From Candidatus Magasanikiibacteriota bacterium (GTDB lineage Bacteria > Patescibacteriota > Patescibacteriia > Magasanikbacterales > UBA922), in contig DOYU01000021.1 of NCBI GenBank assembly GCA_003518365.1, positions 492 through 64,491 of the forward strand: DNA of 64,000 nucleotides, read 5' to 3'. Position 1 is the stretch's first letter; every line of letters starts with the position of its first letter. The position numbers and the translations under genes are program-made. This document shows positions 5,501-47,359 of this stretch, piece by piece. The notes below the pieces were generated by a model. It ran no database searches and had not been told where the DNA came from. It was given only the letters and a program-made list of their open reading frames with translations.

Positions 5501-5596
5501 CTCTCCCCCTAGTAGGGGGAGTTGGAGGGGGTTACCGCAGAAGCAAGAATAGTGGTAGTCCATAACCCCACCTTAATCCTCCCCTAGTAGGGGAGG
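5501..5596 (+). ncRNA. Two near-identical GC-stem hairpins with the same TAGTA loop, ~55 nt apart, immediately 3' of nrnA. Putative structured 3'-UTR element or small RNA.
   Basis: Read directly: CTCTCCCCC-TAGTA-GGGGGAG and CCTCCCC-TAGTA-GGGGAGG. Confidence 0.3.
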
Positions 5597-5606
5597 AAAT
5601 AATAAA

Positions 5607-5640
5607 AAAACAACTCACAAAAAATGTGAGCTGTTTTTTT
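5607..5640. terminator. Rho-independent terminator, bidirectional in form, after nrnA
   Basis: AAAAAAA-CAACTCACA-aaaaa-TGTGAGCTG-TTTTTTT: a stem-loop with A-run and T-run flanks. Confidence 0.7.
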
Positions 5641-5776
5641 ATTTCAAAAGGTTTCGTCTTTTGTCTTATGCTGAGAAGACTCATCAGTCCAGATATCATC
5701 TGAAAACCTCAATGCGACCCTGCAACACGATACCGAAGCATCGTGGCAGAGTCGCTGCAAGAGAACGTGGGAGGCA

Positions 5777-6274
5777 CTAGTACAGGTAGCGCACCACCTC
5801 GAACGTCTCAATTGCGCCTGGTTGCGGCGCAATCGGGACGAACGCCGAGATGTGCACGCCACCTTCCAGCCCGTCGACTTGGAAGACGTAGTCTTCCGTG
5901 TCCATGGTGAGGAACGCCCCACCGTAGACACCACCGTCGCCGGTGACGCCGAAGACCTCGATCTCGAAGATCATTCCGGCGTAGACCTGTACGGGGATCT
6001 CGCCGACGAACTCGTACTCGAACAGCGCGATGTCCGGATCGATGGGATCCCAGACCTGTTGCGCAAAGCCTGCCTCGTCCACCACGGTCAGCCGACAGAC
6101 CGAGATGCACTCGACCCACGCCAAGGGCGGGGTGATGGTCTCATCGCTCGGCGTCGTCGTGTCCACCTGCTCGGGGCAGGCGGCCTGGACGGGCGCGAGG
6201 GTGTCGGAGTCGCAGGCGGCGGCGAGGGTCAGGGTCAGGGTCAGGGCGATGGTGGCGACGAAGAAGCTACGCAT
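5777..6274 (-). CDS. Secreted lipoprotein, copy 1 of a tandem paralogous family, on the GC-rich island
   Basis: Internal Met at MRSFFVATIALTLTLTLAAACDSD (signal peptide plus lipobox Cys), with GGAGGA 8 nt upstream. C-terminal region FEYEFVGEIPVQVYAGMIFEIEVFGVTGDGG resembles copies 2 and 3. Sequence is visibly GC-rich. Confidence 0.6.
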   Translation of the reverse strand: MRSFFVATIALTLTLTLAAACDSDTLAPVQAACPEQVDTTTPSDETITPPLAWVECISVCRLTVVDEAGFAQQVWDPIDPDIALFEYEFVGEIPVQVYAGMIFEIEVFGVTGDGGVYGGAFLTMDTEDYVFQVDGLEGGVHISAFVPIAPQPGAIETFEVVRYLY

Positions 6275-6423
6275 CGGAATCCTCCGGTGATGCGGTCTCA
6301 CGATGTACTTTACTACAGCATTTCTGCAGCAAGCACGATCGAATGAACCGCACCACCAACATGTTCTCTTGCATTGTAAAAAGCATGTCAAAAGAGGTAC
6401 TTGTGTCCTATTTTGAACGGCTG

Positions 6424-6452
6424 AATATAACATAAAAACACACTTTTGTCAA
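6424..6452 (-). promoter_or_regulatory. Putative sigma70 promoter for lipoprotein copy 1
   Basis: On the minus strand: TTGACA, a 17-18 nt spacer, then TATATT, about 150 nt upstream of the start. Confidence 0.4.
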
Positions 6453-6516
6453 GTGTATAACTAAAAAAATTGCCTTATGTTAGCAATTTTCTTCTTTTTT
6501 AGAAGTTTGCAAACAG

Positions 6517-6560
6517 TCGACGCAGCGCACTCCGAAGAGCGCGCCGCGTCGACCGCGAAG
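6517..6560. terminator. GC-rich palindrome 3' of lipoprotein copy 2. A homologous copy sits at 7318-7375, 3' of copy 3.
   Basis: GTCGACGC...CTCCGAAGAG...GCGTCGAC. The related sequence GCGCAGCGC-TGCAACTCCGAAGAGTGCGCGCC follows copy 3. Confidence 0.45.
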
Positions 6561-6565
6561 AAAGA

Positions 6566-7102
6566 TCAGATGCCGTCTTGCCATCCGGGGTCGTAGACCA
6601 CTTGAATGGTGTACCTGCTCCCAGGTGTCCAGTCGTAGATGGGAAATCTCAGCTTTGGTGAGGTCTCGACACCATCATTGACTCGCAGGAGAAATTTGAA
6701 CATGAGGTTGTGGGACACGAGTTCGAGTGTCACACCGCCATTCATAGGGGGCGCGACCATCAGCTCGACCTCGATCTCTGCACCTTCAAGGAGCTGAAAA
6801 TCGAAGATCTCGTTACTCGCGAGATACTCATCGAGCGTAGGTCCCTCTTCATCACTCACATAGTACTCTCCATGAAAGAACCAAATGGGAGCGACCTCCC
6901 CATCCGGCAGGGTGACCGTCACCTTCCACACACCATTGGCCCAGAGAGAAGCGAAGGCTCCTTCTCCACCATAATGAAAGGTGATGCTTGGCTCAGAGGA
7001 ATCTTCCTCCTGCGGAATTTCCACATCTGGAAGGATGGTGGTGTCACAGCCGCCAGAGCTGTAGACGAAACCGAACAGAGCGAGAAAGATAAGTGCGTGC
7101 AT
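6566..7102 (-). CDS. Secreted lipoprotein, copy 2 of the tandem family
   Basis: Internal Met at MHALIFLALFGFVYSSGGCD (lipobox). LDEYLASNEIFDFQLLEGAEIEVELMVAPPMNGGVTLELVSHN aligns with copy 3. Confidence 0.65.
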   Translation of the reverse strand: MHALIFLALFGFVYSSGGCDTTILPDVEIPQEEDSSEPSITFHYGGEGAFASLWANGVWKVTVTLPDGEVAPIWFFHGEYYVSDEEGPTLDEYLASNEIFDFQLLEGAEIEVELMVAPPMNGGVTLELVSHNLMFKFLLRVNDGVETSPKLRFPIYDWTPGSRYTIQVVYDPGWQDGI

Positions 7103-7116
7103 GAAATACCTCAGTG

Positions 7117-7166
7117 TGAATGCGACCATTCGTCAACGTACGGGACCACCCCGCACGTAAACGTAT
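7117..7166 (-). promoter_or_regulatory. Conserved 5' leader element shared by lipoprotein copies 2 and 3. The second copy is at 7917-7965.
   Basis: About 50 nt are nearly identical directly upstream of both start codons: GAAT(G/A)CGACCATTCGTCA(A/G)CGTACGGGACCACCCCG(C/A)AC...AAACGTATC. It contains a CGGG-ACCAC-CCCG hairpin. Confidence 0.45.
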
Positions 7167-7376
7167 CAATCACATCCACATGACGTTGATCTTTCAAACG
7201 TATGATACCATACGTTTGACAGTAAAAAATAGCAGAAAAAACAATTTTGTCAAGTGTCCAAATAAAAAATTGCCTCATATTAGCAATTTCAAATATTTTT
7301 CAAAAGTGAAGCGAAGCGGCCGGCGCAGCGCTGCAACTCCGAAGAGTGCGCGCCACGCCGGTCGCAAGGTGAGAGA

Positions 7377-7895
7377 TCAGGAGCAGGTGCCGTCCGGCAC
7401 GAGCTCCACGAAGTAGGCACGAGGTTCACCCACCGATGTGTAGATGGGCAGATAACACGTGGGCACTCCCCGGTTATTCGTGAACTGATACGCCTGTTGA
7501 TGGGAGACCAAGGTCATCTGCTCGGCACCATTCTCTGGTGGAGATTCGATGAGCTCGACATGGATGGTCTGTCCCTCTGTCAGCTCAAAATCCAGGAACT
7601 CATTCTCCGCCAGGTAGCCATCCAGCTTCCCGGCATCTTCATCAAGGACTTCGTACGGTCCAAGAGAGCGCCAAATCGAAGCAGCAGACCCGTCCGGATT
7701 AAGAACGCTGATCTCGCAGGCTCCTCGGCACCAAAAGGTTCCAAAGTTCTTCTCTCCGAGGTCATGCACTACAACTTTTGCGCCGTCTGCCTTCCCGACC
7801 TTTGGTGTGTCGGATATGCCCTCAATGTCCACATCGCAACCACCAATGAAGATGGCGACCAGCGCAAGAATCATGGTGATAATCGTGAGATGCAT
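7377..7895 (-). CDS. Secreted lipoprotein, copy 3 of the tandem family
   Basis: Internal Met at MHLTIITMILALVAIFIGGCD, with GGAGGA upstream. LDGYLAENEFLDFELTEGQTIHVELIESPPENGAEQMTLVSHQ is paralogous to copy 2. Confidence 0.65.
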   Translation of the reverse strand: MHLTIITMILALVAIFIGGCDVDIEGISDTPKVGKADGAKVVVHDLGEKNFGTFWCRGACEISVLNPDGSAASIWRSLGPYEVLDEDAGKLDGYLAENEFLDFELTEGQTIHVELIESPPENGAEQMTLVSHQQAYQFTNNRGVPTCYLPIYTSVGEPRAYFVELVPDGTCS

Positions 7896-8201
7896 CGCGT
7901 CCTCCATAGAAGTATGAATACGACCATTCGTCAGCGTACGGGACCACCCCGAACACAAACGTATCTGCCGCATCCATACTTCTGTGATCTCTCAAAAATA
8001 TCATATCAAACTAGGAGTATTTTTCCTAGTTTGAATAGATGAAGATAGCGTATTTTGCGACGTTTGTCAATATATTAAATATCTGGCTGTATTGCTTACG
8101 CATGTTTCATTGTCAAATTGTTACATTGTTATATTGTTGATGATATTAAATAGATTGATATATGATAATTGTTATTTGCTATCTGAAATGTTAGCACTCT
8201 C

Positions 8202-8230
8202 TTGACAAGACTGATAATCTTCTCTATGCT
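8202..8230 (+). promoter_or_regulatory. Sigma70-type promoter for clpP
   Basis: TTGACA, a 17 nt spacer, then TATGCT, about 55 nt upstream of the clpP ATG. Confidence 0.5.
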
Positions 8231-8875: not shown

Positions 8876-8904
8876 TTCACGAGTCACTTAACACGTAGCA
8901 CGAA

Positions 8905-9135
8905 ACAATCTTACTCTGAACGGGAGGAAACCTTGCCAGGCAAGACTACGCTTCGCTAAGATTATGTTTCACCTACGGTGAAACAAGATTGAAGATTACT
9001 TCACAAAAAGAAGGACATGCATGATATGCATGTCCTTCTTAGCATGTAACATAATCTTCAATCTTTTTTGCCGTAAGGCAAAAGTAATCTTAGTGGAGCG
9101 AAGCGAAACGCAATCTTACGTTGCACTAGGACACA
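8905..9135. repeat. Imperfect palindrome of about 230 bp between convergent genes. It has a perfect 15 bp central hairpin, branch hairpins and AATCTTAC direct repeats. Candidate structured ncRNA or compound bidirectional terminator.
   Basis: The arms pair CGCTTCGCTAAGATTA with TAATCTTAG-GCGAAGCG, and GATTGAAGATTA with TAATCTTCAATC. The centre is AAGAAGGACATGCAT-gat-ATGCATGTCCTTCTT at ~9008-9040. Side hairpins are GTTTCACC-tacg-GTGAAAC and TTTTGCC-gtaa-GGCAAAA. Confidence 0.5.
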
Positions 9136-9170
9136 CGTTGTCACATACTATGTGACTCGTGTCTCGTGAA

Positions 9171-10364
9171 CTACGTGAACAAAACAAACACACTATACAC
9201 TGCTCCAACAGTCAACACGAGCAAGAGCAATGCACCAAGGAGTGCGATATGATGCAATTTATATTTTCCAGGATCAAGATCACCCAATTTTTTTGCGCGC
9301 CAATAAATCAGAAGAATGAGCAACATCTCAATACTACCAAACACACCACCGACAATATTGATCGCGGCAACAAATTGTCGAAGACCTAATAAAAAAATGA
9401 TACAAGGAATACCAAGTGTCACCACCGTCGCAATGCGCCCACTCATATGATAATCCCATGACAGTGAATCTTTGAGCGATACACCATTGAGCAAAAAGCT
9501 GGTCGCCATGGCAAAGAATGCAAACGCATTGCCAAACAAAAACAACGTGTGGCCGAGCCTATTGCCAAGGCCTATCGTTGCAATTTCTGTTGTCCCCTGT
9601 CCTGTCACCCCTACAACGACGAGCGCAAATGTCAGATACAGCGCCATGACGAGCAACCCTCCTATGAGGATCGCGCGACGAAATGCTCCGTTATCATCTT
9701 TCAAAAGGGCATGTATCTCAGGCACTGCTGTCGTACCATGGAGAGAAAATAAGACCACACCATAGGGAAGAAAGAGATAGGCAAGATTTGTGGTATAGAG
9801 ATGGGTGATGTCAATATGTGGCACACTCAGTGACGTGATAAACAACACAATCACCAAAATGCCAATGGTGAGAATCAGTTCAGCGGTCTTCACAGTGCGA
9901 AGCCCGAGCATCACAAGGAGTGCTGCGAATACAAAGAACACCAGACTCCACTCTACGCTACTGCCCCCAAAGAGCGCAGCAAGCGTTTCCCCTTCTCCAA
10001 TCAGATAAATCACGAGCGCGCCAAACAGCATGCCATACATCATGACGGTCATGATCATCCCGCCTGCCTTTCCTAAATATTTTTTTGCAAACCCAACGAG
10101 CTGAAACGACCCATGTGTTCTCACTGCGACTTCGCCAAGCATGAGATTCAGTCCGATCATAAGCGCGCCTAAGCCAATAATATAGAGCACCCCAATCAAC
10201 ACACCCGCTTGTGCTACAGCATAGGGCAATCCGAGCACTCCAGCACCGATCGTCCCACTGATCATGAGTGCAACGCCTTCAGCCATAGAAAGTTTGCGTC
10301 GAAAAATTCCTTGATGCATGGCAAGGTCTGTGATTTCTAGTTGTGGGCGTTTTCGAAAGAACAT
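9171..10364 (-). CDS. Amino-acid permease, Aa_trans / aromatic amino acid (Trp/Tyr) permease-like, 11-12 TM
   Basis: Highly hydrophobic. N-terminal SMAEGVALMISGTIGAGVLGLPYAVAQAG resembles amino-acid/H+ symporters. The start is ambiguous between 10364 and 10319. Confidence 0.55.
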   Translation of the reverse strand: MFFRKRPQLEITDLAMHQGIFRRKLSMAEGVALMISGTIGAGVLGLPYAVAQAGVLIGVLYIIGLGALMIGLNLMLGEVAVRTHGSFQLVGFAKKYLGKAGGMIMTVMMYGMLFGALVIYLIGEGETLAALFGGSSVEWSLVFFVFAALLVMLGLRTVKTAELILTIGILVIVLFITSLSVPHIDITHLYTTNLAYLFLPYGVVLFSLHGTTAVPEIHALLKDDNGAFRRAILIGGLLVMALYLTFALVVVGVTGQGTTEIATIGLGNRLGHTLFLFGNAFAFFAMATSFLLNGVSLKDSLSWDYHMSGRIATVVTLGIPCIIFLLGLRQFVAAINIVGGVFGSIEMLLILLIYWRAKKLGDLDPGKYKLHHIALLGALLLLVLTVGAVYSVFVLFT

Positions 10365-20964: not shown

Positions 20965-21023
20965 TGCCTTTCGCGAAAGGCGGAGCGCGTCCCTCCCTTC
21001 ACGAAGGGAGGGATATATCGTAT
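20965..21023. repeat. Two adjacent GC hairpins of one family. Hairpin A is repeated at 21322-21353, so the GIY-YIG gene is flanked by it on both sides.
   Basis: GGGCTTGTCCTGCCTTTCGCGAAAGGCGGA at 20965-20994, then TCCCTCCCTTCACGAAGGGAGGGA at 21000-21023. TGGCTTGTCCCTGCCTTTCGCGAAAGGCGGGA at 21322-21353. Both flanks also carry a TATAGTG motif. Confidence 0.5.
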
Positions 21024-21047
21024 AGTGTGTATCAAACAGGAGGGGCT

Positions 21048-21296
21048 ATGTTCTATACCTACCTATTGCAAAGTACAAAGGACAACAATTTTTATATTGG
21101 ATCAACGACGGATTTAAAAAGAAGATTCACCGAACATAACGATGGGAAAGTTTCTTCAACAAAATTTCGTCGTCCAATGAAATTGGTATATTACGAAGCC
21201 TATCCAGAAGAACATCTGGCACGAGTACGCGAACAAAAATTAAAAGATTTTGGTTCAGCATACACAGCACTATTAAAAAGATTAGGGTATAAATAA
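21048..21296 (+). CDS. GIY-YIG nuclease-superfamily small protein (82 aa)
   Basis: MFYTYLLQSTKDNNFYIGSTTDLKRRFTEHNDGK...YYEAYPEEHLARVREQKLK carries the YIG motif, conserved Arg and Glu. RBS AGGAGG upstream. Confidence 0.8.
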   Translation: MFYTYLLQSTKDNNFYIGSTTDLKRRFTEHNDGKVSSTKFRRPMKLVYYEAYPEEHLARVREQKLKDFGSAYTALLKRLGYK

Positions 21297-21411
21297 TATA
21301 GATATATAGTACGTTGTATAGTGGCTTGTCCCTGCCTTTCGCGAAAGGCGGGATAAATACTGTGGTCTTCAAAAGAAGATGAGGCAAACAAAAAAATGCA
21401 TATACATACAT

Positions 21412-21484
21412 GGGCGCATCGTATAGTGGTAGTACATTGGTCTCCAAAACCAATTGCGTGGGTTCGATTCCTACTGCGCCTGCA
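21412..21484 (+). tRNA. tRNA-Trp (anticodon CCA)
   Basis: Manual fold: acceptor GGGCGCA/TGCGCCT with a G1-U72 wobble, D-arm GTAT/GTAC, anticodon stem TTGGT/ACCAA with loop CTCCAAA, T-arm GTGGG-TTCGATT-CCTAC. CCA is not encoded. Confidence 0.8.
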
Positions 21485-21538
21485 CTGGAAAACATACCAA
21501 AAATAAGGTATGTTTTTATAGATAATAGAATAAACGAT

Positions 21539-21973
21539 ATGAAAAAAATAACCATCTCCCCCATGCCGACAATAGATTTTCTCTACATATTTTTTGCAGG
21601 TCTTTTGGGGGCAATCAGCTTCGGCATTGTATTTGGACTCATTGGTCTCTTGTTTGCAGATTATCTCGGCTTTCCACTCGCGGTAGGATCTGAAGAATTT
21701 ATGATGGGAGCTAGCATGATCTTCTACAGTACGCTTGCAATACCAGTCGGCGCATATATTGGATGCCTCAAAACTGCAAAATATTTATCATATACAACAA
21801 AAGACCTATACTCTTATTTTACAGGGTTTGTCCTTATTGCGATTGGATTATTTTTGAAAGATTATGTAAGTGTCTATTCATTGCTAGCATTCGGTGCAGT
21901 CAGTGCATTGGTCTTTGCAATGGTAATGGGGGTCTCTGCAAGCAAATCACAAAAGTCTGACATGACAAAATAG
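21539..21973 (+). CDS. Hypothetical integral membrane protein (4 TM)
   Basis: The track ORF 21410.. overlaps the tRNA, so I trimmed it to MKKITISPMPTIDFLYIFFAGLLG. Confidence 0.5.
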   Translation: MKKITISPMPTIDFLYIFFAGLLGAISFGIVFGLIGLLFADYLGFPLAVGSEEFMMGASMIFYSTLAIPVGAYIGCLKTAKYLSYTTKDLYSYFTGFVLIAIGLFLKDYVSVYSLLAFGAVSALVFAMVMGVSASKSQKSDMTK

Positions 21974-22059
21974 GTCAAATCGATTTAATCGTTATTCATA
22001 TCCAGCCCCAAGCTGAATTTTGAAGTATCGTTCCAAGTGCGTCTCACAACGCATGCTAA

Positions 22060-22095
22060 CAAGATAAGACTTACCCTAGTCTTATTTTTTTTACC
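22060..22095 (+). terminator. Rho-independent terminator
   Basis: AAGATAAGACTTA-ccc-TAGTCTTATTTTTTTT. Confidence 0.6.
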
Positions 22096-22176
22096 AAAAA
22101 TTGGATAATGTTTCTATAATAATATACTATATATGATAATCAAGAATATATTATTCAAGATTAATAGATATAGATT

Positions 22177-22827
22177 ATGTATAGAAAAGGAGAAGTCATA
22201 GGTGTCGGGAATGACAAACGCATATATGCTGACGCAATAACTCCTGAGACAAGAGTTATTGCTGAATTTCGCAAGGAACAAACACCTGAAGAAATAAAGA
22301 GTGTGTACTATCTTGGGAACATAGCTCATATATTATTCCCTCAAAATGTACCCAAAGTATATGAAGCAGGGATGCATCCACAAGAACATACGAAAGTAGA
22401 AAGAAAAAAGGTGGATGTCAATCATAAAAATACGGCTGATCTCATGGTGACATACGAAGATTATTTCATGGGAGATGGTGAAACGGGACCTTCTTCAGAA
22501 GAAGATAGTGAGATGGATGTAGATATAGAAAAAAAAGAAACCGATCCAAGAGTAAAACAACTTTTAACAAAAGCGTCTTCTGTCGGATTATATTTTGATA
22601 CAGGCGGACAAAATTTTTCTTTTGACGATTTGGGTACTGTCCAATATCTTGAAGTGAATCCAGCATTTCATATAGAAAAAAACCACGTCCGTTTGCACTT
22701 CAACGAAAGCAAATTAAGAGATGCCATACAAGCATTAGAAAATGAAAAAGAGAAAAAAAAGGCTACACTATATTTCGAACGATTGATGTCTTTGATCCAA
22801 GTAGCACAAAATAATCTTATACAATAG
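22177..22827 (+). CDS. Hypothetical acidic protein of 216 aa, AT-rich, apparently monocistronic between two terminators
   Basis: No recognisable motifs and an acidic middle region (SSEEDSEMDVDIEKKE). Confidence 0.4.
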   Translation: MYRKGEVIGVGNDKRIYADAITPETRVIAEFRKEQTPEEIKSVYYLGNIAHILFPQNVPKVYEAGMHPQEHTKVERKKVDVNHKNTADLMVTYEDYFMGDGETGPSSEEDSEMDVDIEKKETDPRVKQLLTKASSVGLYFDTGGQNFSFDDLGTVQYLEVNPAFHIEKNHVRLHFNESKLRDAIQALENEKEKKKATLYFERLMSLIQVAQNNLIQ

Positions 22828-22911
22828 TTCCAACTTCCTCCTTCCTCTACGATCCCCTGCACCTCCTGCAGTAGCTCCTGCCGGCAGGCAGGTTAGCGAA
22901 GGCACGGCACT

Positions 22912-22946
22912 TGAAAAACAGAGTGAAAAACACTCTGTTTTTCTTT
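22912..22946 (+). terminator. Rho-independent terminator
   Basis: AAAACAGAGTG-aaaaa-CACTCTGTTTTTCTTTTTG. Confidence 0.65.
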
Positions 22947-22951
22947 TTGAC

Positions 22952-23212
22952 ATGAAGGGAAGAACGGAGTATTGTACAAGTAAACATATACATTATATTG
23001 GTATGGCTCATCAAAAAAATACAATCGGAAAAAACATCAAACGATTACGGCAAGAACAAAAAATTTCCCAAGATCGTCTTTCAAAACTTGCGGATCTTTC
23101 TTTGAATACTATTGTTACCGTTGAAAGTGGCGCAAACGAAAATCCTACTATTGATACGCTCACAAGGATTGCGAAAGCGTTTCAAGTTGGCGTGGATGAC
23201 CTCATAACATAA
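22952..23212 (+). CDS. XRE-family HTH transcriptional regulator, first gene of the defence operon
   Basis: IGKNIKRLRQEQKISQDRLSKLADLSLNTIVTVESG is a classic Cro/C1 HTH. The true start may be the internal Met at 23003. Confidence 0.75.
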   Translation: MKGRTEYCTSKHIHYIGMAHQKNTIGKNIKRLRQEQKISQDRLSKLADLSLNTIVTVESGANENPTIDTLTRIAKAFQVGVDDLIT

Positions 23213-23220
23213 CACCCACT

Positions 23221-24198
23221 ATGTCTAAACAAACACCTACCAATAATCTCGCTATCTACCAAGCTAAAAACGGCGCGATTGAATTTCGCGGTGATTTTGA
23301 GCAAGAGACGGTTTGGGGAAATTTAAATCAAATTGCCGATCTTTTTGGTCGCGACAAGTCCGTTGTTTCCCGCCATATAAAAAACATCTATAAAACAGGC
23401 GAATTAAACGAAACGGCAACTGTTGCAAAAATTGCAACAGTTCAAAAGGAAGGAAGGAGAGAAGTGATGCGTGAAATTGAGTACTTCAACCTTGATGTTA
23501 TTTTGTCCGTTGGGTACAGAGTAGATTCCAAGCAAGCCACGCAATTCCGCAAATGGTCAACGCAAGCGCTCAAGGCACACCTTGTAGACGGGTATACCAT
23601 CAACAAAAAACGCATCGGTAATAACTACGAACACTTTTTGCGTGCAGTGGCAGAAACAAAAGCACTCCTCCCTGTGGGCAACAAGGTTTCTACCGAGGAT
23701 ATACTTGAACTCGTGAACGCATTTGCTGCTACGTGGTTTTCGCTCGATGCATATGACAAAGACGCATTTCCTCAAAAAACAGCCTCAAAAAAGTCAGTTT
23801 CAGTTGACACTGTAAAGCTACTCAATGCGATTGGTGAGTTGAAGCAAGAACTGATAACCAAAAAGCAAGCAACAAACCTATTTGCACAAGAAAGGAAGAC
23901 GGGAACAGTAGAAGGAATCGTCGGAAATGTATTTCAGTCTGCCTTTGGCAAAGATGTATATCCAAGTATAGAAGAAAAGGCCGCACACATCCTCTACTTC
24001 ATGGTAAAAAATCATCCATTCACCGATGGCAACAAGCGCAGCGGAGCCTTTGCATTTGTTTGGTTTCTACGAAAAGCTGGTTTACTCCGACCAAGTCTTA
24101 CTCCAGAAGCGTTGACTGCCATTACCCTCCTCATTGCAGAGAGTAATCCAAAAGATAAAGACAAAATGGTGGGACTAGTGGTGATGTTAATCAAATAA
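23221..24198 (+). CDS. RhuM-family N-domain fused to a Fic/Doc-type C-domain
   Basis: RhuM-like N-terminus: NLAIYQAKNGAIEFRGDFEQETVWGNLNQIADLFGRDKSVVSRHIKNI...YFNLDVILSVGYRVDSKQATQFRKWSTQ. C-terminal HPFTDGNKRSG matches the Doc/Fic motif HxFx(D/N)GNKR. Confidence 0.7.
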   Translation: MSKQTPTNNLAIYQAKNGAIEFRGDFEQETVWGNLNQIADLFGRDKSVVSRHIKNIYKTGELNETATVAKIATVQKEGRREVMREIEYFNLDVILSVGYRVDSKQATQFRKWSTQALKAHLVDGYTINKKRIGNNYEHFLRAVAETKALLPVGNKVSTEDILELVNAFAATWFSLDAYDKDAFPQKTASKKSVSVDTVKLLNAIGELKQELITKKQATNLFAQERKTGTVEGIVGNVFQSAFGKDVYPSIEEKAAHILYFMVKNHPFTDGNKRSGAFAFVWFLRKAGLLRPSLTPEALTAITLLIAESNPKDKDKMVGLVVMLIK

Positions 24199-24200
24199 CT

Positions 24201-25322
24201 ATGGCAAATAAAAACCTTACAAAAGCAAAAAAGGCAAAAAATGATGAATTTTATACTCAATTTTCAGATATTCAAAAAGAAGTTGAGTCTTATCTTGAGT
24301 ATAACCCAGATACTTTTAAAGATAAGATAATTTACAGTAATTGTGACGACCCGTTCGAAAGTAATTTCTTTCGCTATTTTGTATTAAATTTTGATCGTTT
24401 AGGACTAAAGAGACTTATTTCAACGAGCTACAAACCCTCACCTGTTGCCAATACGCAACTGGGATTATTTGGCGATGACAAAACACTTGAAAAAGTAAAA
24501 GGCCGTCCAAAAGTAACCGCTAACAAATTCATCATCAACGAAGTTGGCGATATCGACGGCGACGGCTCTTTTACGCTAGAAGATATTGCCCAACAGCTTC
24601 GAGCGAATAAAAATAACGAATGGACTCCGCTTGAGGGCGATGGTGATTTTAGAAGTGCCGAATGTGTCGAGTTGCTCAAACAATCTGACATCGTAGTTAC
24701 TAATCCTCCATTTAGTTTATTCCGTGAATATATTACGCAACTTTTCGAACACAAAAAGCAATTTCTAATTATTGGTAGCATGAACTCAATTACTTACAAA
24801 GAAATCTTTGTGTTGATTAAAAATAATAAATTGTGGTTAGGTAATGGGTTTAATGCTGGCAATGCATATTTTTCAACTCCCAATGCGCGAAAAGATTTTG
24901 CTTCTGGTGTGTATGATGAAAAAACTGGTCTTGTAAAATTTCGGAATTGTCATTGGTTTACTAATTTAGATCATGGTCGTCGTCATCAGCCTCTTAATCT
25001 GATGACAACAAATGAAAACCTAAGATTTAATAAAAAAATGCAAGGCAAAACTACTTATGATCGTTATGACAATTATGACGCTATTGATGTACCATTTACA
25101 AAAGCTATCCCTTCTGACTACGAAGGAGTAATGGGTGTTCCTATAAGCTTTCTCGATAAGTACAATCCTAATCAGTTTGAGATATTGGGCTCTGACACAG
25201 ACATAAAAGAAGGTAAACTTCCACTTTTAATAATAAGTAAATGGAATGGAAAGCTAGACAGAGGTTATATACATGGAAAGAGAATCTTCAGTAGAATGTT
25301 TATTAAGCACAAAAAGAAATAA
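24201..25322 (+). CDS. N6-adenine DNA methyltransferase (NPPF motif), tentatively EcoRI-methylase-like family
   Basis: TNPPF catalytic motif in [15 protein letters not shown]-terminal [10 protein letters not shown] block. Starts 3 nt after the upstream stop. Confidence 0.6.
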
Positions 25323-25323
25323 T

Positions 25324-26487
25324 ATGAAAACAACCTTAAAAAATGATATCACCGTTAAAGAAGTTTGCGACGGCTTTGAATACAACGAATTTGAAGGAAA
25401 AGGTTTGTTTGGTCTCTCTGGCAAACTAACTATTCAGCCAGAGTATCAGCGTAATTATATTTATGCTGACGGCAAACGTGACGTTGCTGTAATTGACTCA
25501 ATTTTAAAGGGTTATCCTATCGGTTTGATCTATTTCAATCAGGCTGGTAAAGACGAGTTTGAAGTATTAGATGGTCAACAGCGCATCACGAGTATAGGTC
25601 GTTTTGTTACTGGCAAATTTGCTGTTAAAGATAAAAACGGTCACGAGCAATACTACAGCGGTATGTCTGAGAGTCAGCGTGAGCAAATTATGAAGACTAA
25701 GTTGTTGGTGTATGTGTGCGAAGGTGACGAGCCTGAGATCAAAGATTGGTTCAAGACTATTAACATTGCTGGAGTGCCATTAACTGAACAAGAGATTCTT
25801 AACGCGGTATATTCTGGGCCATTCGTTACTCGAGCTCGTGAAGAGTTTAGTAATAGTCAAAATACCAACATCCAGAAATGGAGTGCGTACATCGCAGGTG
25901 ATATCAAGCGTCAGGCATACTTGGAACGAGCTCTAGATTGGGTTTCTGATGGATCAATCGATAGTTATATGAGCAAACACCGCAATGACAAAAATATTAC
26001 TGAACTAAAAAAACATTTTGATACTATCATTGACTGGGTCTCAACTATCTTTACTGACGTTGAGAGCGATATGAAAGGCCTTGAGTGGAACAGGATTTAT
26101 GAGACATATCACAAGAAGAAATACAATCCGACTACCATCTCTGCTTCTGTTCAGAAGCTCTATGCTGATGGTTTCGTAAAAAGTCGCAAAGGCATTTTTG
26201 AATATGTTTTAGGCGGAGAAGTTGAAACTAAACTACTTGAAATACGAGTATTTGAGGACTCAACAAAACGTTCAGTTTACGAAGCTCAAACTGCTATTGC
26301 AAAGAAAAAAGGTGTTTCAAACTGTCCACATTGTGCTATTGGGCATGATGCCAATAAAGAAAAAATTTGGACTTTAAGCGATATGGATGCTGATCATGTG
26401 GCTGCTTGGAGTAAAGGTGGAAAAACGGAAGCAAAAAACTGTGAGATGTTGTGTAAAACGCATAATCGTGCCAAAGGTAATCGGTAA
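25324..26487 (+). CDS. DUF262 (ParB/Srx-like) N-domain plus C-terminal HNH nuclease; GmrSD/SspE-like architecture
   Basis: DUF262 hallmark [11 protein letters not shown]...[13 protein letters not shown]-terminal CPHCAIGHD...[12 protein letters not shown]...[10 protein letters not shown] (CxxC...DH...N...CxxHN). Start MKTTLK sits 2 nt after the MTase stop. Confidence 0.65.
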
Positions 26488-26493
26488 AATATT

Positions 26494-27987
26494 ATGCACC
26501 TCACAAAAACCGACTATCTCGAATATACCTTTTGCAAAAAGAACCTTTGGCTCAAAAAACATAAGCCAGAGCTTTTTGAAGATGTAGAATTGTCGGAATT
26601 TGAAAAAAAAATTATTGAGGAAGGGAATTTGGCTGATGAGGCTGCAAGAAATTTATTTCCTGATGGAGAATTGATCGGTATCGTCGGAGTAAATGCTATA
26701 CCTGTTACAAAAAAGATACTGGAGAAAAACCCACCAGTATTATTTCAAGGTGCATTTTCATTCAATGACTTTTTTGTTCAAGCGGATATTTTACGTTACA
26801 ACGACATTTTAAAGGGTTGGGAACTTTACGAAGTAAAAGCAACAAATGATGTAAAACGAGAAATCCCTCATCACCATATCAACGACCTTGCGTTTCAAAA
26901 AATTGTAATTGAACAAAATGGGATACACATTATAAAAGCAGGCGTTATTCACCTTAACGGCGAATATAGACAACGAGGCAAAGTAAACTATAACGAACTG
27001 TTCATCATTGCCGAGCTTACTGATGAAGTACTAGAAGCGGAAGAACTTGTACGTGGGCAGATGCGTGATATTCACACATATATGGACATGGCAGAAGAAA
27101 AAAATTGTGAATGTTTGTATCGAGGTAGAAATGCACAATGTACAACGTTCGCTTACTCTAATCCTGAAGTGCCTGAATACTCTGTTCACGATATCAATAG
27201 AATTGGCGGAAGCAAAAAACTGTTTTTTGACTGGATAGATAGAGGGATCTACCGGCTCGAAGATATAGATAACCCAGAAAATCTTACAGGATCAAAAAAG
27301 GCACAATATACTGCGTACATAACAGGTAAGCCTCTCATAGACAAAGAAGCAATACAAAAAGAACTTGGTGAATTGGTTTTTCCTCTCCAATTTTTTGATT
27401 ACGAAGGATATTCTAGTGCTATCCCCAGCTTTAACGGCTTCGGTGCGTATGAACAAGTGCCTTTTCAATATTCACTACATACGCTCCATGAAGACGGAAC
27501 GCTTGAACACCGAGAATATCTCATCACAGAGCCAGAGAATGATTTGACTTTGCCATTGGTAGAAAGAATGAAAGAAGACTTTGATGATGTTGGTACTGTC
27601 ATATCTTGGTACAAATCATACGAATCACAACGAAACGACAAACTAGCAGAACTTCATCCAAATCATGCAGACTTTCTTATTGGCCTCAATGACAGAATGT
27701 TTGACCTCATGACAATGTTTTCCAAAAATTATTATGTGGATGCACGGTTCAAAGGGAGTGCAAGCATAAAAAATGTTCTGCCGGTCATTGTACCGGAATT
27801 AACGTACAAAGTACTTGGTATTCAAAAAGGAGATCAAGCAGTAGAACGTTGGGAAAAAATGATATTTGCAGATATTCATCCAGATGAAAAGAAAGAAATA
27901 AAAAAAGATTTGCTTGAGTATTGCAAATTGGATACTTTGGCGATGGTGAGGATTTGGGAGTTTCTAATGAAAATAAAAAATGTATGA
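26494..27987 (+). CDS. DUF2779-family protein (predicted PD-(D/E)xK-like nuclease N-domain plus RNase-H-like C-domain)
   Basis: N-terminal LTKTDYLEYTFCKKNLWL and C-terminal YCKLDTLAMVRIW are the blocks I recall for DUF2779. The identification is from memory, not searched. Confidence 0.5.
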   Translation: MHLTKTDYLEYTFCKKNLWLKKHKPELFEDVELSEFEKKIIEEGNLADEAARNLFPDGELIGIVGVNAIPVTKKILEKNPPVLFQGAFSFNDFFVQADILRYNDILKGWELYEVKATNDVKREIPHHHINDLAFQKIVIEQNGIHIIKAGVIHLNGEYRQRGKVNYNELFIIAELTDEVLEAEELVRGQMRDIHTYMDMAEEKNCECLYRGRNAQCTTFAYSNPEVPEYSVHDINRIGGSKKLFFDWIDRGIYRLEDIDNPENLTGSKKAQYTAYITGKPLIDKEAIQKELGELVFPLQFFDYEGYSSAIPSFNGFGAYEQVPFQYSLHTLHEDGTLEHREYLITEPENDLTLPLVERMKEDFDDVGTVISWYKSYESQRNDKLAELHPNHADFLIGLNDRMFDLMTMFSKNYYVDARFKGSASIKNVLPVIVPELTYKVLGIQKGDQAVERWEKMIFADIHPDEKKEIKKDLLEYCKLDTLAMVRIWEFLMKIKNV

Positions 27988-29219
27988 ATATGCACAGCCC
28001 TCTTTCTTCAATTCAACAACTACAATCAATATTAAGTAGTCCTTCGAAAAAAATCGGATTCCTTTTTGGGGCTGGAATTTCAATGGAAAAAAAAGATAAG
28101 AGTGATTTGGTGGTAGGAACTGATGACAAAAAAGATGAGAACGGTAATGTAATAAAAGAAGGAATGACAAGTCTCGCAATTAAAAATTTATCAGAGGAAC
28201 AAAAAAAAGCTGTAGATTTAATAAAGAATGAGGTTGAAACAGAAAATAAAAAATTTAACATCGAAAGTCTCTTATCAAAAATTTCTGAAAAAGAAAGAGC
28301 TGTTGGCGATCAAGAGCTTTGTGGTTTAACAAAAGAAAAATTATTAAATTTGAGAAAGGATATACAGGATAAAATAAGAGATTTGGTTTCCGTACATAGG
28401 GTGGATGATAAAGAAATTGATATTGAGGCATTAAATCACAGCACATTTGCTCAATGGATTAGTAATGCTGATAGAGAATTCTCAGTAGAAATTTTTACAA
28501 CAAATTACGATTATCTACTAGAACTAGCACTTGAAAAACAAGGAATTCCCTATTTCGATGGTTTTGTGGGTAGTTATGAAGCATTTTTTTGCCCTGAATG
28601 GATTGAAGATGACACGCCTGTCAAAAATTGGGTAAAGCTATGGAAATTACATGGTTCACTTGGTTGGGCACAGAATAGTAAAAAAGAAATAATTAGAACA
28701 TCTGGTAATACCGGTGCGGCGATGATATACCCTTCATTTTTGAAATATGACCATTCCAAAAAACAGCCATACTTGAGCTATATGGATAGATTGTCCGATT
28801 TTTTAAAGCAAGAAGATTCTGTCTTATTTGTTTGTGGTTATTCATTTGGAGATGAACATATAAATGAAATAATTTTGACAGCACTTACGCACTCTCGCTC
28901 ATCACATGTATTTGTGTTGAAAAATGGAGAAATGGAAAAATCTAGCCATCTTTCAAAAGAAATTGCACAAAAAAATTCTAGAATTTCAGTTTATGCAAAA
29001 CGTACCTGTATTATTGGAGGTAAATTTGGAGAATGGAAGCTCGATAGAGAACCAGACAGAAATGAATCCTACAACATATTAGATTATGCTTTTGATGAAG
29101 ACGCTACACCTGATGGAGTACCATGGACAGGAAGAGGTGATTTTCGTCTTGGAGACTTTAAAAAATTTACGGAGTTTTTAGAGCTTTTCTACCATAATTC
29201 GAGATATATCAATAAATGA
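27984..29219 (+). CDS. sir2: SIR2-family domain protein, the NADase partner of the SIR2-HerA system
   Basis: GFLFGAGIS...FTTNYDYLLE...KLHGSLGW...VCGYSFGDEHINEII is the SIR2_2-type motif set. The start ATG overlaps the DUF2779 stop (ATGA). Confidence 0.75.
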   Translation: MNMHSPLSSIQQLQSILSSPSKKIGFLFGAGISMEKKDKSDLVVGTDDKKDENGNVIKEGMTSLAIKNLSEEQKKAVDLIKNEVETENKKFNIESLLSKISEKERAVGDQELCGLTKEKLLNLRKDIQDKIRDLVSVHRVDDKEIDIEALNHSTFAQWISNADREFSVEIFTTNYDYLLELALEKQGIPYFDGFVGSYEAFFCPEWIEDDTPVKNWVKLWKLHGSLGWAQNSKKEIIRTSGNTGAAMIYPSFLKYDHSKKQPYLSYMDRLSDFLKQEDSVLFVCGYSFGDEHINEIILTALTHSRSSHVFVLKNGEMEKSSHLSKEIAQKNSRISVYAKRTCIIGGKFGEWKLDREPDRNESYNILDYAFDEDATPDGVPWTGRGDFRLGDFKKFTEFLELFYHNSRYINK

Positions 29220-29220
29220 C

Positions 29221-30999
29221 ATGAGAAATAAAGAGACATTTATAGGTAAAGTGAGAAGTGTCACAGGTAGTACGCTTGCTATTGAGTTACACGAAGATAT
29301 TAGATCAACGTTACCTATTATTGATGGGATATTATATAGAATTGGACAAATTGGTTCTTTTATAAGAATTCCTTTTGGTTATGTTGATTTATATGGAGTA
29401 ATTACACAAGCTGGATCAGACGCTATACCAGAAAAATTAGCGGAGCAAGAGGGTTTGAAAGGATCTCGCTGGATTAAGGCTACTCTTATTGGAGAAAGGG
29501 TCGGTAATAGATTTGAAAGAGGGGTGTTGCAATTTCCTATTGCTGATGACGAAGTTCATTTGGTCACGAAGGATGATTTGGAATTGATATATGGTGGAAT
29601 TGATGAATCAAAGTCAATAGTAGTTGGACAGGTCAGTGCCTCTGAAAATCTGTCAGCAAGAATAGATATAGACAGATTAATTAATAGACATTGCGCCATA
29701 CTTGGCTCTACAGGAAGTGGAAAATCAAATACAGTTTCTGTAATACTAGAAGCAATTGCTTCTAGACATCATGATGATGAAAATATAAAAAGTACGAGAA
29801 TTCTTTTGGTCGACCCTCATGGTGAGTATGGCGATATTTTAAAAAATTATAGTCAAATATTTAAGTTAGGAGCAGACTTGTCAAAAGGAGAAAAAGAACT
29901 AGTTGTTCCATATTGGGCTTTACCTTTTCAAGAATTTATAAAAAGTTTTCCAGGTAATCTAACTGAAAAGCAGGAAGAGTACATACGTGAAGAAATTCTA
30001 CAAAGAAAGATTAAGGCTTCTAAAAAATTAAATCCTATTCCACAAGAGGAGGCAATTACAGCTGATAGCCCTATCCCTTTCAGTATTAAACAACTATGGT
30101 TTGACCTTATTGATATAGAGCAAAAAACTTTTAATAACAAGGAGTTAACCGAAGTCGCACTCGAATCACTAGGCGATCCTGAGGCACTTAAGCCTAACAA
30201 ATACTCCATAGCGTCAACAAATAATACAGCCCCTTTCAGTAATAACAGGGTTGCGCAGGGTATTTCAAGTTTTTTAAACTTAATGCGGAATAGAATTTTA
30301 GATCAAAGATTTAAGTTTTTATTCAAACTAGACACGCTCTCTCCTGGTATTGACGGAACTATTTCAAGTGATTTAGACAGTCTCATTGAAAGTTGGATTG
30401 GGACAGAGAAACCAATAACTATTTTAGACCTATCGAGTATACCCTCTGAAATCATGGGTTCAATTTCTGGTTCTTTGCTTTCAATAATTTATGAATTTCT
30501 ATATTGGGGACAGAATGAAGATGTGGGAGGTCGCCAAACACCTATTCTGTTTGTACTAGAAGAGGCACATAATTATCTAAAGTCAGGCGAGAATTCTATT
30601 GCCTCAAGAACTGTACAAAAAATTGCAAAAGAGGGTAGAAAATATGGTTCAGGTTTACTACTCGTAACCCAACGACCTTCTGAACTGGATGATACTGTTT
30701 TGAGTCAATGTGGTTCAGTTATCGCGTTGAGAATGACAAATTCTAGCGATAGAGGCCACGTAAAGAGTGCTGTCGAGGATTCCCTAAACGAGTTAGTTGA
30801 TTTGCTTCCGAGCCTAAGAACAGGTGAAGGTTTAATTATGGGTGAATGTGTAAAATTACCTATGCGAACTAAATTTTCTAAAACTAGGGAATCTAAAAGT
30901 ACAGACCCACTTGTTTCTAAGCAGTGGAAAACAACTCTTCCAGAATCCTCTAACTATAATAAAGTTTTAGAAAATTGGAGAAATAATAAATTTTCTTAA
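29221..30999 (+). CDS. herA: HerA-like (DUF87) ATPase/helicase, partner of SIR2
   Basis: Walker A AILGSTGSGKSNTVSVILE, Walker B ILFVLEEAHNYL, and LLLVTQRPSELDDTVLSQCGSVIALRMTN (sensor/arginine-finger region). Starts 2 nt after the SIR2 stop. Confidence 0.8.
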   Translation: MRNKETFIGKVRSVTGSTLAIELHEDIRSTLPIIDGILYRIGQIGSFIRIPFGYVDLYGVITQAGSDAIPEKLAEQEGLKGSRWIKATLIGERVGNRFERGVLQFPIADDEVHLVTKDDLELIYGGIDESKSIVVGQVSASENLSARIDIDRLINRHCAILGSTGSGKSNTVSVILEAIASRHHDDENIKSTRILLVDPHGEYGDILKNYSQIFKLGADLSKGEKELVVPYWALPFQEFIKSFPGNLTEKQEEYIREEILQRKIKASKKLNPIPQEEAITADSPIPFSIKQLWFDLIDIEQKTFNNKELTEVALESLGDPEALKPNKYSIASTNNTAPFSNNRVAQGISSFLNLMRNRILDQRFKFLFKLDTLSPGIDGTISSDLDSLIESWIGTEKPITILDLSSIPSEIMGSISGSLLSIIYEFLYWGQNEDVGGRQTPILFVLEEAHNYLKSGENSIASRTVQKIAKEGRKYGSGLLLVTQRPSELDDTVLSQCGSVIALRMTNSSDRGHVKSAVEDSLNELVDLLPSLRTGEGLIMGECVKLPMRTKFSKTRESKSTDPLVSKQWKTTLPESSNYNKVLENWRNNKFS

Positions 31000-31010
31000 T
31001 TATTAAACAT

Positions 31011-31223: not shown

Positions 31224-31242
31224 ATATGAAATAGGATTGTTT

Positions 31243-31289
31243 GAGGGAGGGGCAATTCTCCTTTTTGATTCCCCTCTTCCCCCTCCCCC
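31243..31289 (+). terminator. Putative imperfect G/C-tract hairpin with an internal T-run at the end of the defence operon
   Basis: GAGGGAGGGG-caattctcctttttgatt-CCCCTCTTCCCCCTCCCCC. Confidence 0.35.
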
Positions 31290-43065: not shown

Positions 43066-43066
43066 T

Positions 43067-44905: not shown

Positions 44906-44916
44906 GACTGAATGGT

Positions 44917-47354: not shown

Positions 47355-47359
47355 ACCAT

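Follow-up and report, generated by a model that had tools for sequence, protein, structure and literature searches.

The region examined lies between nrnA and clpP in a Ca. Magasanikbacteria genome, within a stretch of 64,000 nucleotides that was analysed as a whole (hereafter the window; all positions refer to it). Three lipoprotein genes are found there, all on the minus strand: copy 1 (5777-6274, 165 aa, GC 64.5%), copy 2 (6566-7102, 178 aa, GC 53%) and copy 3 (7377-7895, 172 aa, GC 54.5%). The initial annotation had described a GC-rich island of about 2.3 kb holding three tandem lipobox-bearing paralogues of 166, 178 and 172 aa, and this observation is confirmed, apart from the length of the first protein. 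Each gene codes for a signal peptide satisfying the PROSITE PS51257-type lipobox pattern, as do 7 of the 8 related cassette proteins. Copies 2 and 3 are 37% identical, whereas copy 1 joins them only through intermediate homologues. Copy 2 lacks the CxxxC pair found in the rest of the family, and copy 3 is the orthologue of the clpP-proximal genes of two related lineages, L019 and L016 (47-48% aa identity; relatives are designated hereafter by such L numbers).

We first measured composition and codon usage, as the initial annotation had proposed. In 200-nt windows, GC content was 58-70% over positions 5700-6300 and 52-56% over the copy 2 and copy 3 genes, and fell to 35-37% in the two spacers, compared to about 43% in the neighbours and 42.7% for the whole window. 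GC3 was 0.867, 0.609 and 0.624 for copies 1, 2 and 3, against 0.385 +/- 0.075 for the 44 other ORFs of at least 150 aa (z = 6.4, 3.0 and 3.2). The atypical composition stops at the start and stop codons. For copy 1, public gene calls use the opposite strand, but codon-position GC and third-position substitutions support the minus-strand frame, as does a dN/dS below 1 (0.32-0.37 against orthologues). The coding part evolves fast, with a dN/dS of about 0.33, against 0.02-0.06 for nrnA.

The locus is bounded, as the initial annotation stated, by the nrnA terminator (5604-5640) and the clpP promoter (8202-8230). The former is a bidirectional intrinsic terminator, shared by nrnA on the plus strand and the copy 1 transcript on the minus strand. 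Between these limits, each gene is embedded in a noncoding frame, read here on the minus strand. The cassette 1 leader (6281-6452) comprises a sigma-70-like promoter (6424-6452), a hairpin HP1 at the predicted 5' end of the transcript (6389-6415), the 5' arm of a long-range helix (6360-6373), a long hairpin HP2 (6286-6357) and the Shine-Dalgarno sequence (SD, 6281-6285). The cassette 2 leader (7108-7253) contains a promoter (7226-7253), HP1 (7191-7222), the 5' arm (7187-7195) and HP2 (7108-7186), and the cassette 3 leader (7905-8070) a promoter (8042-8070), HP1 (8006-8034), the 5' arm (7985-7994) and HP2 (7905-7986). The transcription start is predicted from the -10 box only.

Downstream of each gene, a GC-rich hairpin with a UUCG loop was identified by folding. 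Those following copies 2 and 3 (6513-6556 and 7316-7365) had been recognised in the initial annotation, which missed a third one of the same kind after copy 1 (5714-5755), conserved in L007, L019, L016 and L010. AT-rich intrinsic terminator hairpins end cassette 2 (6463-6489) and cassette 3 (7264-7289). The 3' arms of the long-range helix lie at 5756-5769 for cassette 1 (CACGUUCUCUUGCA), 6560-6568 for cassette 2 (UGAUCUUUC, including the stop codon) and 7370-7379 for cassette 3 (UGAUCUCUCA, including the stop codon), so that a 9-15-nt segment of the 5'UTR pairs with the sequence at or just after the stop codon. The best 5'/3' complement falls at the homologous place in 9 of 11 cassettes. In total, 83% of cells are paired, against 32-51% in controls with slid partners, 8 of 14 pairs are compensatory, and G.U pairs specific to the sense strand are present in L007. 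However, much of this covariation separates just two leader types, so that there are few independent events, and the alignment was anchored by hand on conserved motifs. Covariation was also detected in HP1 and HP2.

After copy 1, between the GC hairpin and the terminator, the frame also contains a previously unannotated type III hammerhead ribozyme (5648-5710, minus strand), identified from sequence and covariation. Stem III pairs 5706-5710 with 5648-5652, the stem I hairpin is at 5688-5704, the CUGAUGA core at 5681-5687, stem II at 5656-5680 and GAA at 5653-5655. H17 is U5705, which places the predicted cleavage between 5705 and 5704. The conserved core positions C3-U4-G5-A6-N7-G8-A9 and G12-A13-A14 are present: CUGAUGA (CUGACGA in L011) and GAAA are invariant in six lineages, although one strain, L001, carries G8U in the catalytic core, so that activity is dispensable at least there, unless this base is an assembly error. 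The A15.1-U16.1 pair is kept in 6 of 6 sequences (columns 15/69 are U-A), and H17 is U or C, never G. Helices I and II are closed by loops and helix III is open. Over the 17 pairs of the six lineages, 99% of cells are paired and 7 pairs show compensatory changes, a result reached by 0 of 500 shuffles, while controls with the partners slid by 1-3 columns gave 38-53% paired.

The match to the Rfam model RF00008 remains below the gathering threshold of 48.5 bits: 21.7 bits in the window, and 33.0 and 29.2 bits in L010 and L011, where the match spans the full model length (E 3e-4 and 4e-3, in small searches). The long helix II loop (15 nt) and the 3-nt loop 1 cost score. The CM R1 gives 91.8 bits and a single copy in the window. 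The hammerhead fold lies 3-5 kcal/mol above the predicted MFE, and cassettes 2 and 3 have no hammerhead.

We next compared the locus with related genomes. Every relative recovered with this region carries GC3-rich lipoprotein genes (GC3 0.70-0.94) in AT-rich frames, and at least five lineages, L007, L019/L001/L013, L016/L017, L011 and L018, show this at the same nrnA-clpP site or next to nrnA, in one to three cassettes. L019 and L016 have only two cassettes at this site, so that copy 2 is an addition in the window's lineage. L007 has a single cassette but keeps half of the upstream terminator hairpin, so its state is a deletion. The noncoding frame is much better conserved than the genes: leaders are 75-91% identical (87-91% for the cassette 1 leader against those of L016, L010 and L019) and 3' frames 78-85%, while proteins are about 20% identical, and nrnA synonymous sites differ at 61% for the window-L019 lineage pair. 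Within the window, the copy 2 and copy 3 units repeat with a period of about 800 nt. Their noncoding parts are 78-92% identical, and in a comparison of the two units these parts reach 85-90% identity while the coding parts are at 35-65%. In relatives, the mature-protein coding part is replaced by a very different family member, replaced by an unrelated lipoprotein, or absent. In L016, a 203-aa Cys-rich lipoprotein, with an hhalign probability of homology of 4.8%, occupies a frame 87% and 85% identical to that of copy 1, and in L018 the signal peptide runs straight into the hammerhead.

Homologues of the proteins were then searched for. An exhaustive HMMER search of 1.84 billion protein representatives found no homologue in any GC-rich organism, and only two remote relatives, both on Magasanikbacteria-like contigs. 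No further family member was found among the ORFs of the window. An AF2 model of the protein was weak (pLDDT 55.8), with only generic beta-sandwich matches at Z no higher than 6.9.

Taken together, the comparisons establish that positions 5.6-8.1 kb are this genome's version of a lineage-wide, ancestral and variable locus of self-contained lipoprotein cassettes, in which a strongly conserved noncoding frame encloses a GC3-rich, fast-evolving coding part, with the hammerhead added in the nrnA-proximal cassette and copy 2 gained in this lineage. The functional reading which we favour, with moderate confidence, is by contrast inferred from sequence alone. In this view, the frame would be an RNA-level expression and stability chassis. 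The hammerhead would self-cleave the transcript after U5705, leaving a 2',3'-cyclic-phosphate end just 3' of the GC hairpin, and the role of this step would be mRNA 3'-end maturation or stabilisation. The 5'/3' helix and the 5'-terminal hairpin would tuck both mRNA ends away from exonucleases, giving a durable mRNA for an abundant surface lipoprotein. The conserved frames would also serve as homology arms, through which coding parts under diversifying pressure (host or phage contact) are exchanged between relatives.

The same anatomy may obey the opposite logic, a possibility that we consider doubtful. Hammerhead cleavage would then remove the protective terminator hairpin and destabilise the mRNA, while the 5'/3' helix would form an RNase III site or lock the mRNA in an inert form, as in hok, so that the lipoproteins are made only under particular conditions. 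All the structural evidence fits this equally well. Ribozymes placed in 3'UTRs are reported to usually lower expression in reporters, and the roles of bacterial hammerheads to be unresolved (PMC6765202). Moreover, in cassette 2 the base of HP1 and the 5' arm of the long-range helix overlap at 7191-7195, which allows alternative folds. However, after cleavage the new 3' end would still sit directly behind a very stable GC hairpin, so that the transcript would not be left unprotected, the SD and start codon are not sequestered by any conserved helix, and a helix of 9-15 bp is shorter than typical RNase III substrates.

The initial annotation proposed horizontal acquisition followed by local tandem duplication of a whole gene cassette, and this interpretation is only partly supported. 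Duplication or gain of a whole cassette is supported by the repeated copy 2 and copy 3 units. A recently inserted foreign GC-rich segment, with its gene then tandemly duplicated twice and the GC hairpins being the donor's terminators, appears unlikely, in spite of the strong compositional contrast and of the resemblance of these hairpins, which lack a U-tract, to terminators of high-GC bacteria. First, the same kind of gene sits at the same site in at least five diverged lineages whose nrnA dS exceeds 1, which contradicts a recent import. Second, the search above yielded no homologue outside Magasanikbacteria-like contigs, and no mobility gene such as an integrase, tRNA or flanking direct repeat was found at the borders. 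Third, the atypical composition is confined to the CDS, inside native-composition frames. Fourth, copy 1 and copy 3 types are both old, so they did not arise by duplication in this genome. Finally, copy 1 dS (0.47) is lower than nrnA dS (1.24) for the same pair. An ancient foreign origin of the founding gene cannot be excluded. GC3 is eroding in some lineages, as amelioration predicts: third-position changes are strongly GC-to-AT in L019 copy 1 (18:1) and in the window's copy 3 (26:7). They are however balanced in two lineages (3:4 and 4:4), which leaves GC3 maintenance ambiguous. The strand, the conserved RNA frame and the hammerhead had also been missed in the initial annotation.

Two further possibilities are very unlikely. 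The inverted repeats flanking each coding part might act on DNA, as sites for an invertase or recombinase that flips or swaps the coding segment in phase or antigenic variation, the RNA pairing being a by-product. Short inverted repeats do flank every CDS, coding parts are swapped or deleted exactly between frames in relatives, several contigs of relatives break in or near the locus, and a large serine recombinase gene lies about 0.5 kb beyond the window's left end. However, the CDS has the same orientation relative to its promoter in all 11 cassettes, the arms contain G.U-type differences that pair only in the sense-strand RNA, no recombinase gene lies within the locus in any lineage, and the L008 and L009 contig breaks fall inside the HigA gene, a repeat shared between co-assembled strains. 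As for a remnant of a phage or other mobile element, with the lipoproteins as superinfection-exclusion or moron genes, it is suggested by the association of bacterial hammerheads with phages and small non-conserved ORFs (PMC6155905, PMC6765202), by a HigBA toxin-antitoxin pair and a MITE-like repeat occupying the same intergenic region in relatives, and by the variable cassette content, but no phage gene lies in or beside the locus, PHROG and PADLOC searches gave nothing beyond a weak match to the signal peptide, the hammerhead pattern had zero matches in 2.9 million viral contigs, and the site is fixed between housekeeping genes across deep divergence.

Among described systems, bacterial genomic hammerheads (RF00008 Hammerhead_3 and relatives; Perreault et al. 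2011, Jimenez et al. 2011, reviewed in PMC6155905 and PMC6765202) share the catalytic core, the three-stem fold and the type III topology, and typically lie next to a small, non-conserved ORF of unknown function, as here. A role in mRNA processing or 3'UTR effects has been proposed for them but is unproven (PMC6765202). The present one differs in that its score escapes annotation pipelines, in being a single copy rather than paired hammerheads flanking an ORF, in not being phage-associated but fixed in the 3'UTR of a chromosomal lipoprotein gene between nrnA and clpP across at least six CPR lineages, and in being embedded in a larger conserved RNA frame. A full-text literature search found no paper combining hammerhead ribozymes with the Candidate Phyla Radiation. 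The discontinuous hammerhead of mammalian Clec2 genes (Martick et al. 2008, cited in PMC6155905) is likewise a type III hammerhead conserved in the 3'UTR of a gene for a surface protein, with a proposed role in 3'-end formation or control of expression, but it is eukaryotic, has a very long helix I and involves the choice of polyadenylation site, whereas the hammerhead described here is compact (63 nt), bacterial and followed by an intrinsic terminator.

Long-range mRNA pairings that close the coding region into a loop occur in bacteria, in the icaR 5'UTR-3'UTR interaction of Staphylococcus aureus and the fbi-tac pairing of hok mRNA. In icaR the 3'UTR covers the SD and recruits RNase III, and in hok the extreme 3' end locks the 5' end until it is trimmed. 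Here the 5' arm lies about 90-100 nt upstream of the start, the SD stays free, and the helix sits beside end-proximal hairpins and a ribozyme. HP1 recalls the 5'-terminal stem-loop stabilisers of the ompA leader and of the Bacillus aprE/ermC type, as it starts within a few nucleotides of the predicted transcription start of an envelope-protein mRNA and is conserved with compensatory changes, its stabilising effect being inferred by analogy. Finally, tandem lipoprotein paralogues with a conserved 5'UTR and signal peptide, a hypervariable or replaced mature part, and flanks that could act as recombination arms are also found in the variable loci of Mycoplasma (Vlp/Vsp/Vsa) and in the Borrelia Vmp expression site, with its upstream and downstream homology sequences, in organisms that likewise have small genomes and are host-dependent, as is likely here. 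However, no homopolymer or repeat switch, invertase or archive of silent copies was found in the 64-kb window, the variation seen is between lineages, and the proteins have no sequence relation to those families.

A bolder reading, compatible with the evidence but tentative, is that Magasanikbacteria use this modular RNA chassis (5'-terminal hairpin, 5'UTR/3'UTR clamp, SD-adjacent hairpin, GC-clamp hairpin and 3'UTR hammerhead) to express interchangeable, GC3-recoded, rapidly diversifying surface lipoproteins, ribozyme self-cleavage being the physiological 3'-end-forming step that produces an exonuclease-resistant mRNA. This would be the first chromosomal bacterial hammerhead with an assignable cellular role, and a natural example of ribozyme-insulated gene cassettes.

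The biological role of bacterial hammerheads is still considered open (PMC6155905, PMC6765202), and most examples sit in poorly defined, phage-like contexts. Here, a hammerhead occupies a fixed, interpretable position, inside a frame whose other RNA elements also covary, and natural variants already exist, namely a G8U strain, hammerhead-less sister cassettes and a cassette lacking the mature coding part, so that what the ribozyme does to this mRNA becomes a directly testable question. For CPR biology, the finding corrects a wrong-strand gene call in public assemblies, and defines an ORFan, fast-evolving lipoprotein family at a recombination-prone site in likely host-dependent bacteria, with a striking CDS-only GC3 enrichment that HGT does not readily explain.

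The composition reported in the initial annotation was recovered: GC is 58-70% over copy 1 and 52-56% over copies 2 and 3, against 35-37% in the spacers and about 43% around the locus. All three genes lie on the minus strand of this Candidatus Magasanikbacteria (CPR) genome, copy 1 at 5777-6274 (165 aa), copy 2 at 6566-7102 (178 aa) and copy 3 at 7377-7895 (172 aa), and all three proteins begin with a signal peptide and lipobox. Their GC3 is 0.867, 0.609 and 0.624, respectively, whereas the 44 other long ORFs have a GC3 of 0.385±0.075 (z = 6.4, 3.0 and 3.2). The observation of a GC-rich stretch with three lipoprotein genes is thus confirmed. A 358-aa ORF at 41214-42287 (minus strand) is another compositional outlier (GC 54%, GC3 0.615), without NCBIfam match at E<0.1. 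Conversely, long stretches of low GC (32-39%, against the 43% average) with positive GC skew are found at 21000-32000 and 43000-49000.

We next examined whether the three genes are paralogous, as had been proposed. Copies 2 and 3, which are identical to proteins UV82_C0014G0010 and G0011 of GW2011_GWD2_4x, clearly are (37% identity, E 1e-31). Copy 1 was not significantly related to them in pairwise comparisons, nor in a two-sequence profile comparison (hhalign probability 1%). Three word-indexed homologue searches returned only self hits and copy 1 orthologues. However, an exhaustive HMMER search of 1.84 billion representatives with a profile of the family returned two genuine remote relatives, hereafter P0009 (172 aa) and P0011 (203 aa). 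Hits to giant proteins in that search (P0005-P0008, P0010, P0012, P0013) were rejected, being sums of many 1-8-bit matches to acidic repeats. P0009 and P0011 bridge the two groups: a profile of copy-2/3-type proteins finds P0011 at 42.5 bits and P0009 at 32 bits, and a profile of copy 1 orthologues finds P0009 at 23.9 bits (E 2e-9 for a single comparison) and P0011 at 17.8 bits. These links hold for the mature parts alone. A CxxxC pair and a few Gly, Trp and Ile positions are shared across the family, although copy 2 has lost the cysteines. Pfam, NCBIfam, PHROGs, PADLOC and a PDB sequence search gave no relative for any of the proteins, and the best AF2 model (pLDDT 55.8, core 72-85) is predicted to be all-beta, with only generic beta-sandwich or jelly-roll matches.

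Over copy 1, public assemblies (ENA and Logan records) call a 164-aa gene on the opposite strand (5822-6346, plus strand), and no exact copy 1 protein is present in the 5.8-billion-sequence collection. This call is wrong, for three reasons. The minus-strand frame has the GC3 > GC1 > GC2 pattern (0.87, 0.65, 0.42), differences from the orthologue concentrate at its third positions, and dN/dS against three orthologues is 0.32-0.37. In the plus-strand 164/174-aa ORF, it is codon position 1 that carries the GC3-like signal and most of the substitutions.

Loci of related lineages (contigs named here by L numbers) were then recovered through nrnA, through the proteins and through a DNA pattern, and they show the same site. 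The Rifle and Crystal Geyser sites yielded these genomes. In L007 (=L014/L015), the order is nrnA, HigA/HigB, a copy 1 orthologue and clpP. In L019 (=L013/L001), it is nrnA, HigBA, a copy 1 orthologue, a copy 3 orthologue and clpP. In L016 (=L017), nrnA is followed by an unrelated Cys-rich lipoprotein, a copy 3 orthologue and clpP. In L011, P0011 is convergent with nrnA. In L018, nrnA and HigBA are followed by a cassette reduced to a signal peptide, the contig ending before clpP. L007 retains half of the terminator hairpin that normally follows an upstream cassette, and its one-cassette state is therefore a deletion. Two cassettes (copy 3 type, then copy 1 type) look ancestral, and the window has one more, copy 2. 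The Cys-rich lipoprotein of L016 (9756-10367, minus strand; 203 aa, GC3 0.92) has a 31%-identical relative upstream of P0009 in the related contig L010 (3-500, plus strand); neither has a Pfam family.

Other elements vary at this site. The HigA/HigB-like toxin-antitoxin pair sits between nrnA and the hammerhead described below in most relatives (L007 11055-11539, L001 750-1234, L018 423-905, and the ends of L008 and L009, two contigs that break inside it), but is absent from the window, L016 and L011. A ~95-nt element bounded by CCCCTAGTAGGGG-type palindromes lies between nrnA and the terminator in the window (5503-5600), where it occurs only once, and at other places of the same intergenic region in L007 (12392-12460), L016 (~9500-9585) and L011 (1-30); it looks like a small MITE-like repeat. 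On the other side of clpP, the convergent intergenic region before the amino-acid permease gene (8876-9170) is a ~290-nt nested, near-perfect palindrome (RNA MFE -121 kcal/mol, z = -11.9), which is conserved in L007 and gave only spurious miRNA-type Rfam hits.

The proposal of horizontal acquisition followed by local duplication is only partly supported: the island reading is mostly not supported, whereas cassette duplication is supported for copy 2. No donor homologue, integrase, tRNA or flanking repeat was found. A gene for a 521-aa large serine recombinase (Resolvase plus Zn_ribbon_recom domains) lies near rpsP, about 0.5-2 kb beyond the left end of the window (L003 17571-19136). Every coding part is GC3-rich (0.70-0.94) inside frames of 37-45% GC. 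Polarised third-position changes (GC-to-AT versus the reverse) are balanced in the window and L007 lineages of copy 1 (3:4 and 4:4, where about 8:1 is expected from background composition), but they are strongly GC-to-AT in L019 copy 1 (18:1) and in the window's copy 3 (26:7). For the same pair, copy 1 dS is 0.47 where nrnA dS is 1.24, which points either to constraint on synonymous sites or to more recent allele exchange.

The main finding is a conserved RNA frame around variable coding parts. Between the copy 1 cassette and its counterparts, the leader (promoter to ATG) is 75-91% identical and the 150 nt after the stop are 78-85% identical, while the proteins are only about 20% identical to P0009 and P0011. 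In L016, the protein in the frame is not detectably related at all (hhalign probability 4.8%). For scale, nrnA synonymous sites differ at 61% between the window and the L019 lineage. Gapped global nucleotide identities of the coding sequences, being inflated by composition and gaps, were not used, and an apparent difference in the copy 1 leader of L002 is a scaffold gap of Ns. Inside the window, units 2 and 3 likewise reach 85-90% identity in noncoding modules and 35-65% in the genes. Read 5' to 3' on the minus strand, the frame starts with a sigma-70-like promoter and a hairpin beginning a few nucleotides after the predicted start, kept with compensatory changes in all 11 cassettes. These are followed by a 9-15-nt segment, about 90-100 nt upstream of the ATG, that is complementary to the sequence at or just after the stop codon, and by a long irregular hairpin ending next to the SD. 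In this hairpin, 10 of 28 pairs are compensatory in copy-1-type leaders, and the copy-2/3-type leaders are also supported. Then come the signal peptide and, after the stop codon, a GC-rich hairpin, with a UUCG loop in all but L011, and an AT-rich terminator. Rfam at gathering threshold detected only tRNAs, and no known riboswitch or other ribozyme appears in the leaders. A CUGACGA in the copy 3 leader was dismissed as a second hammerhead, since it is not conserved in copy 2 (UUGACGA).

For 9 of the 11 cassettes, the best complementary match between leader and 3' region falls at the homologous positions. A MAFFT alignment of concatenated 5' and 3' segments put the 3' arms out of register, and we therefore used segments anchored by hand on the conserved AGAGA/UCUCU motifs, which lean towards the tested structure. 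On these, 83% of cells pair, against 32-51% when the partner is slid by 1-3 columns, and 8 of 14 pairs show changes on both sides, for example A-U in five cassettes and U-A in five. Most of this covariation, however, separates two leader types. In L007, the helix extends to 24 nt with three U.G pairs, which would be A.C mismatches on the other strand, and this favours pairing in the sense RNA over a DNA recombination site.

A permissive Rfam scan gave a weak Hammerhead_3 hit at 5649-5709 on the minus strand (21.7 bits), and the homologous places in L010 and L011 match the full model at 33.0 and 29.2 bits (E 3e-4 and 4e-3), all below the gathering score of 48.5. A metagenome pattern scan added further lineages. 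In six distinct versions, the core CUGANGA...GAAA, the A15.1-U16.1 pair and a U or C at the cleavage position are kept, and stems I, II and III show 7 of 17 pairs with compensatory changes. In total 99% of cells are paired, a level reached by none of 500 shuffles, and slid controls give 38-53%. A covariance model finds one copy in the window (91.8 bits) and none elsewhere in it, and the pattern has no match in viral contigs. The motif spans 5648-5710, with cleavage predicted between 5705 and 5704. It lies 3' of the GC hairpin (5714-5755) and 5' of the bidirectional terminator (5604-5640), and is therefore part of the copy 1 3'UTR. Some points speak against it: the fold is 3-5 kcal/mol above the MFE, cassettes 2 and 3 have no hammerhead, and two strains carry variants. 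L001 (667-712) has G8-to-U in the catalytic core (CTGATTAG), and L002 (1118-1164) has U10.2-to-C, which creates a C.A mismatch in stem II, while the sister contigs L013 and L019 have the intact core. The pattern scan also picked up an unrelated hammerhead of type I topology (open helix I, closed helix III) in a metagenome contig of 39% GC (L012 301-366, minus strand).

Gene order, frame conservation and covariation are thus read from the sequences themselves, whereas self-cleavage, any effect on the mRNA and a role of the frames in exchange are inferred. All elements of the frame sit at or near the two mRNA ends. A 5'-terminal hairpin is a classic protection against 5'-end-dependent decay, hammerhead cleavage would leave a 2',3'-cyclic phosphate a few nucleotides behind a very stable GC hairpin, and the 5'/3' helix would bring both protected ends together. 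We therefore favour a role in mRNA hardening and 3'-end maturation, supporting high output of a surface lipoprotein. The opposite, repressive, reading is the main rival, and reviews state that such roles for bacterial hammerheads have been suggested but not established (PMC6155905, PMC6765202). DGR-type mutagenesis is not indicated near the locus, where no reverse transcriptase or template repeat was seen. Integron cassettes were rejected because each cassette has its own promoter and terminator and no integrase gene lies in the locus.

Variable lipoprotein loci and genomic hammerheads are both already known. What sets this locus apart is the conserved multi-element RNA frame, and a hammerhead in a defined chromosomal 3'UTR in CPR bacteria, a combination that a full-text search found mentioned in no paper. 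The conserved frames, including the signal peptide, would also offer homology arms on both sides of the mature coding part, which fits the replacement seen in L016, the missing mature part in L018 and the extra cassette in the window. The fast protein evolution (dN/dS about 0.33, against 0.02-0.06 for nrnA) fits a surface protein under diversifying pressure in a probably host-dependent CPR bacterium.
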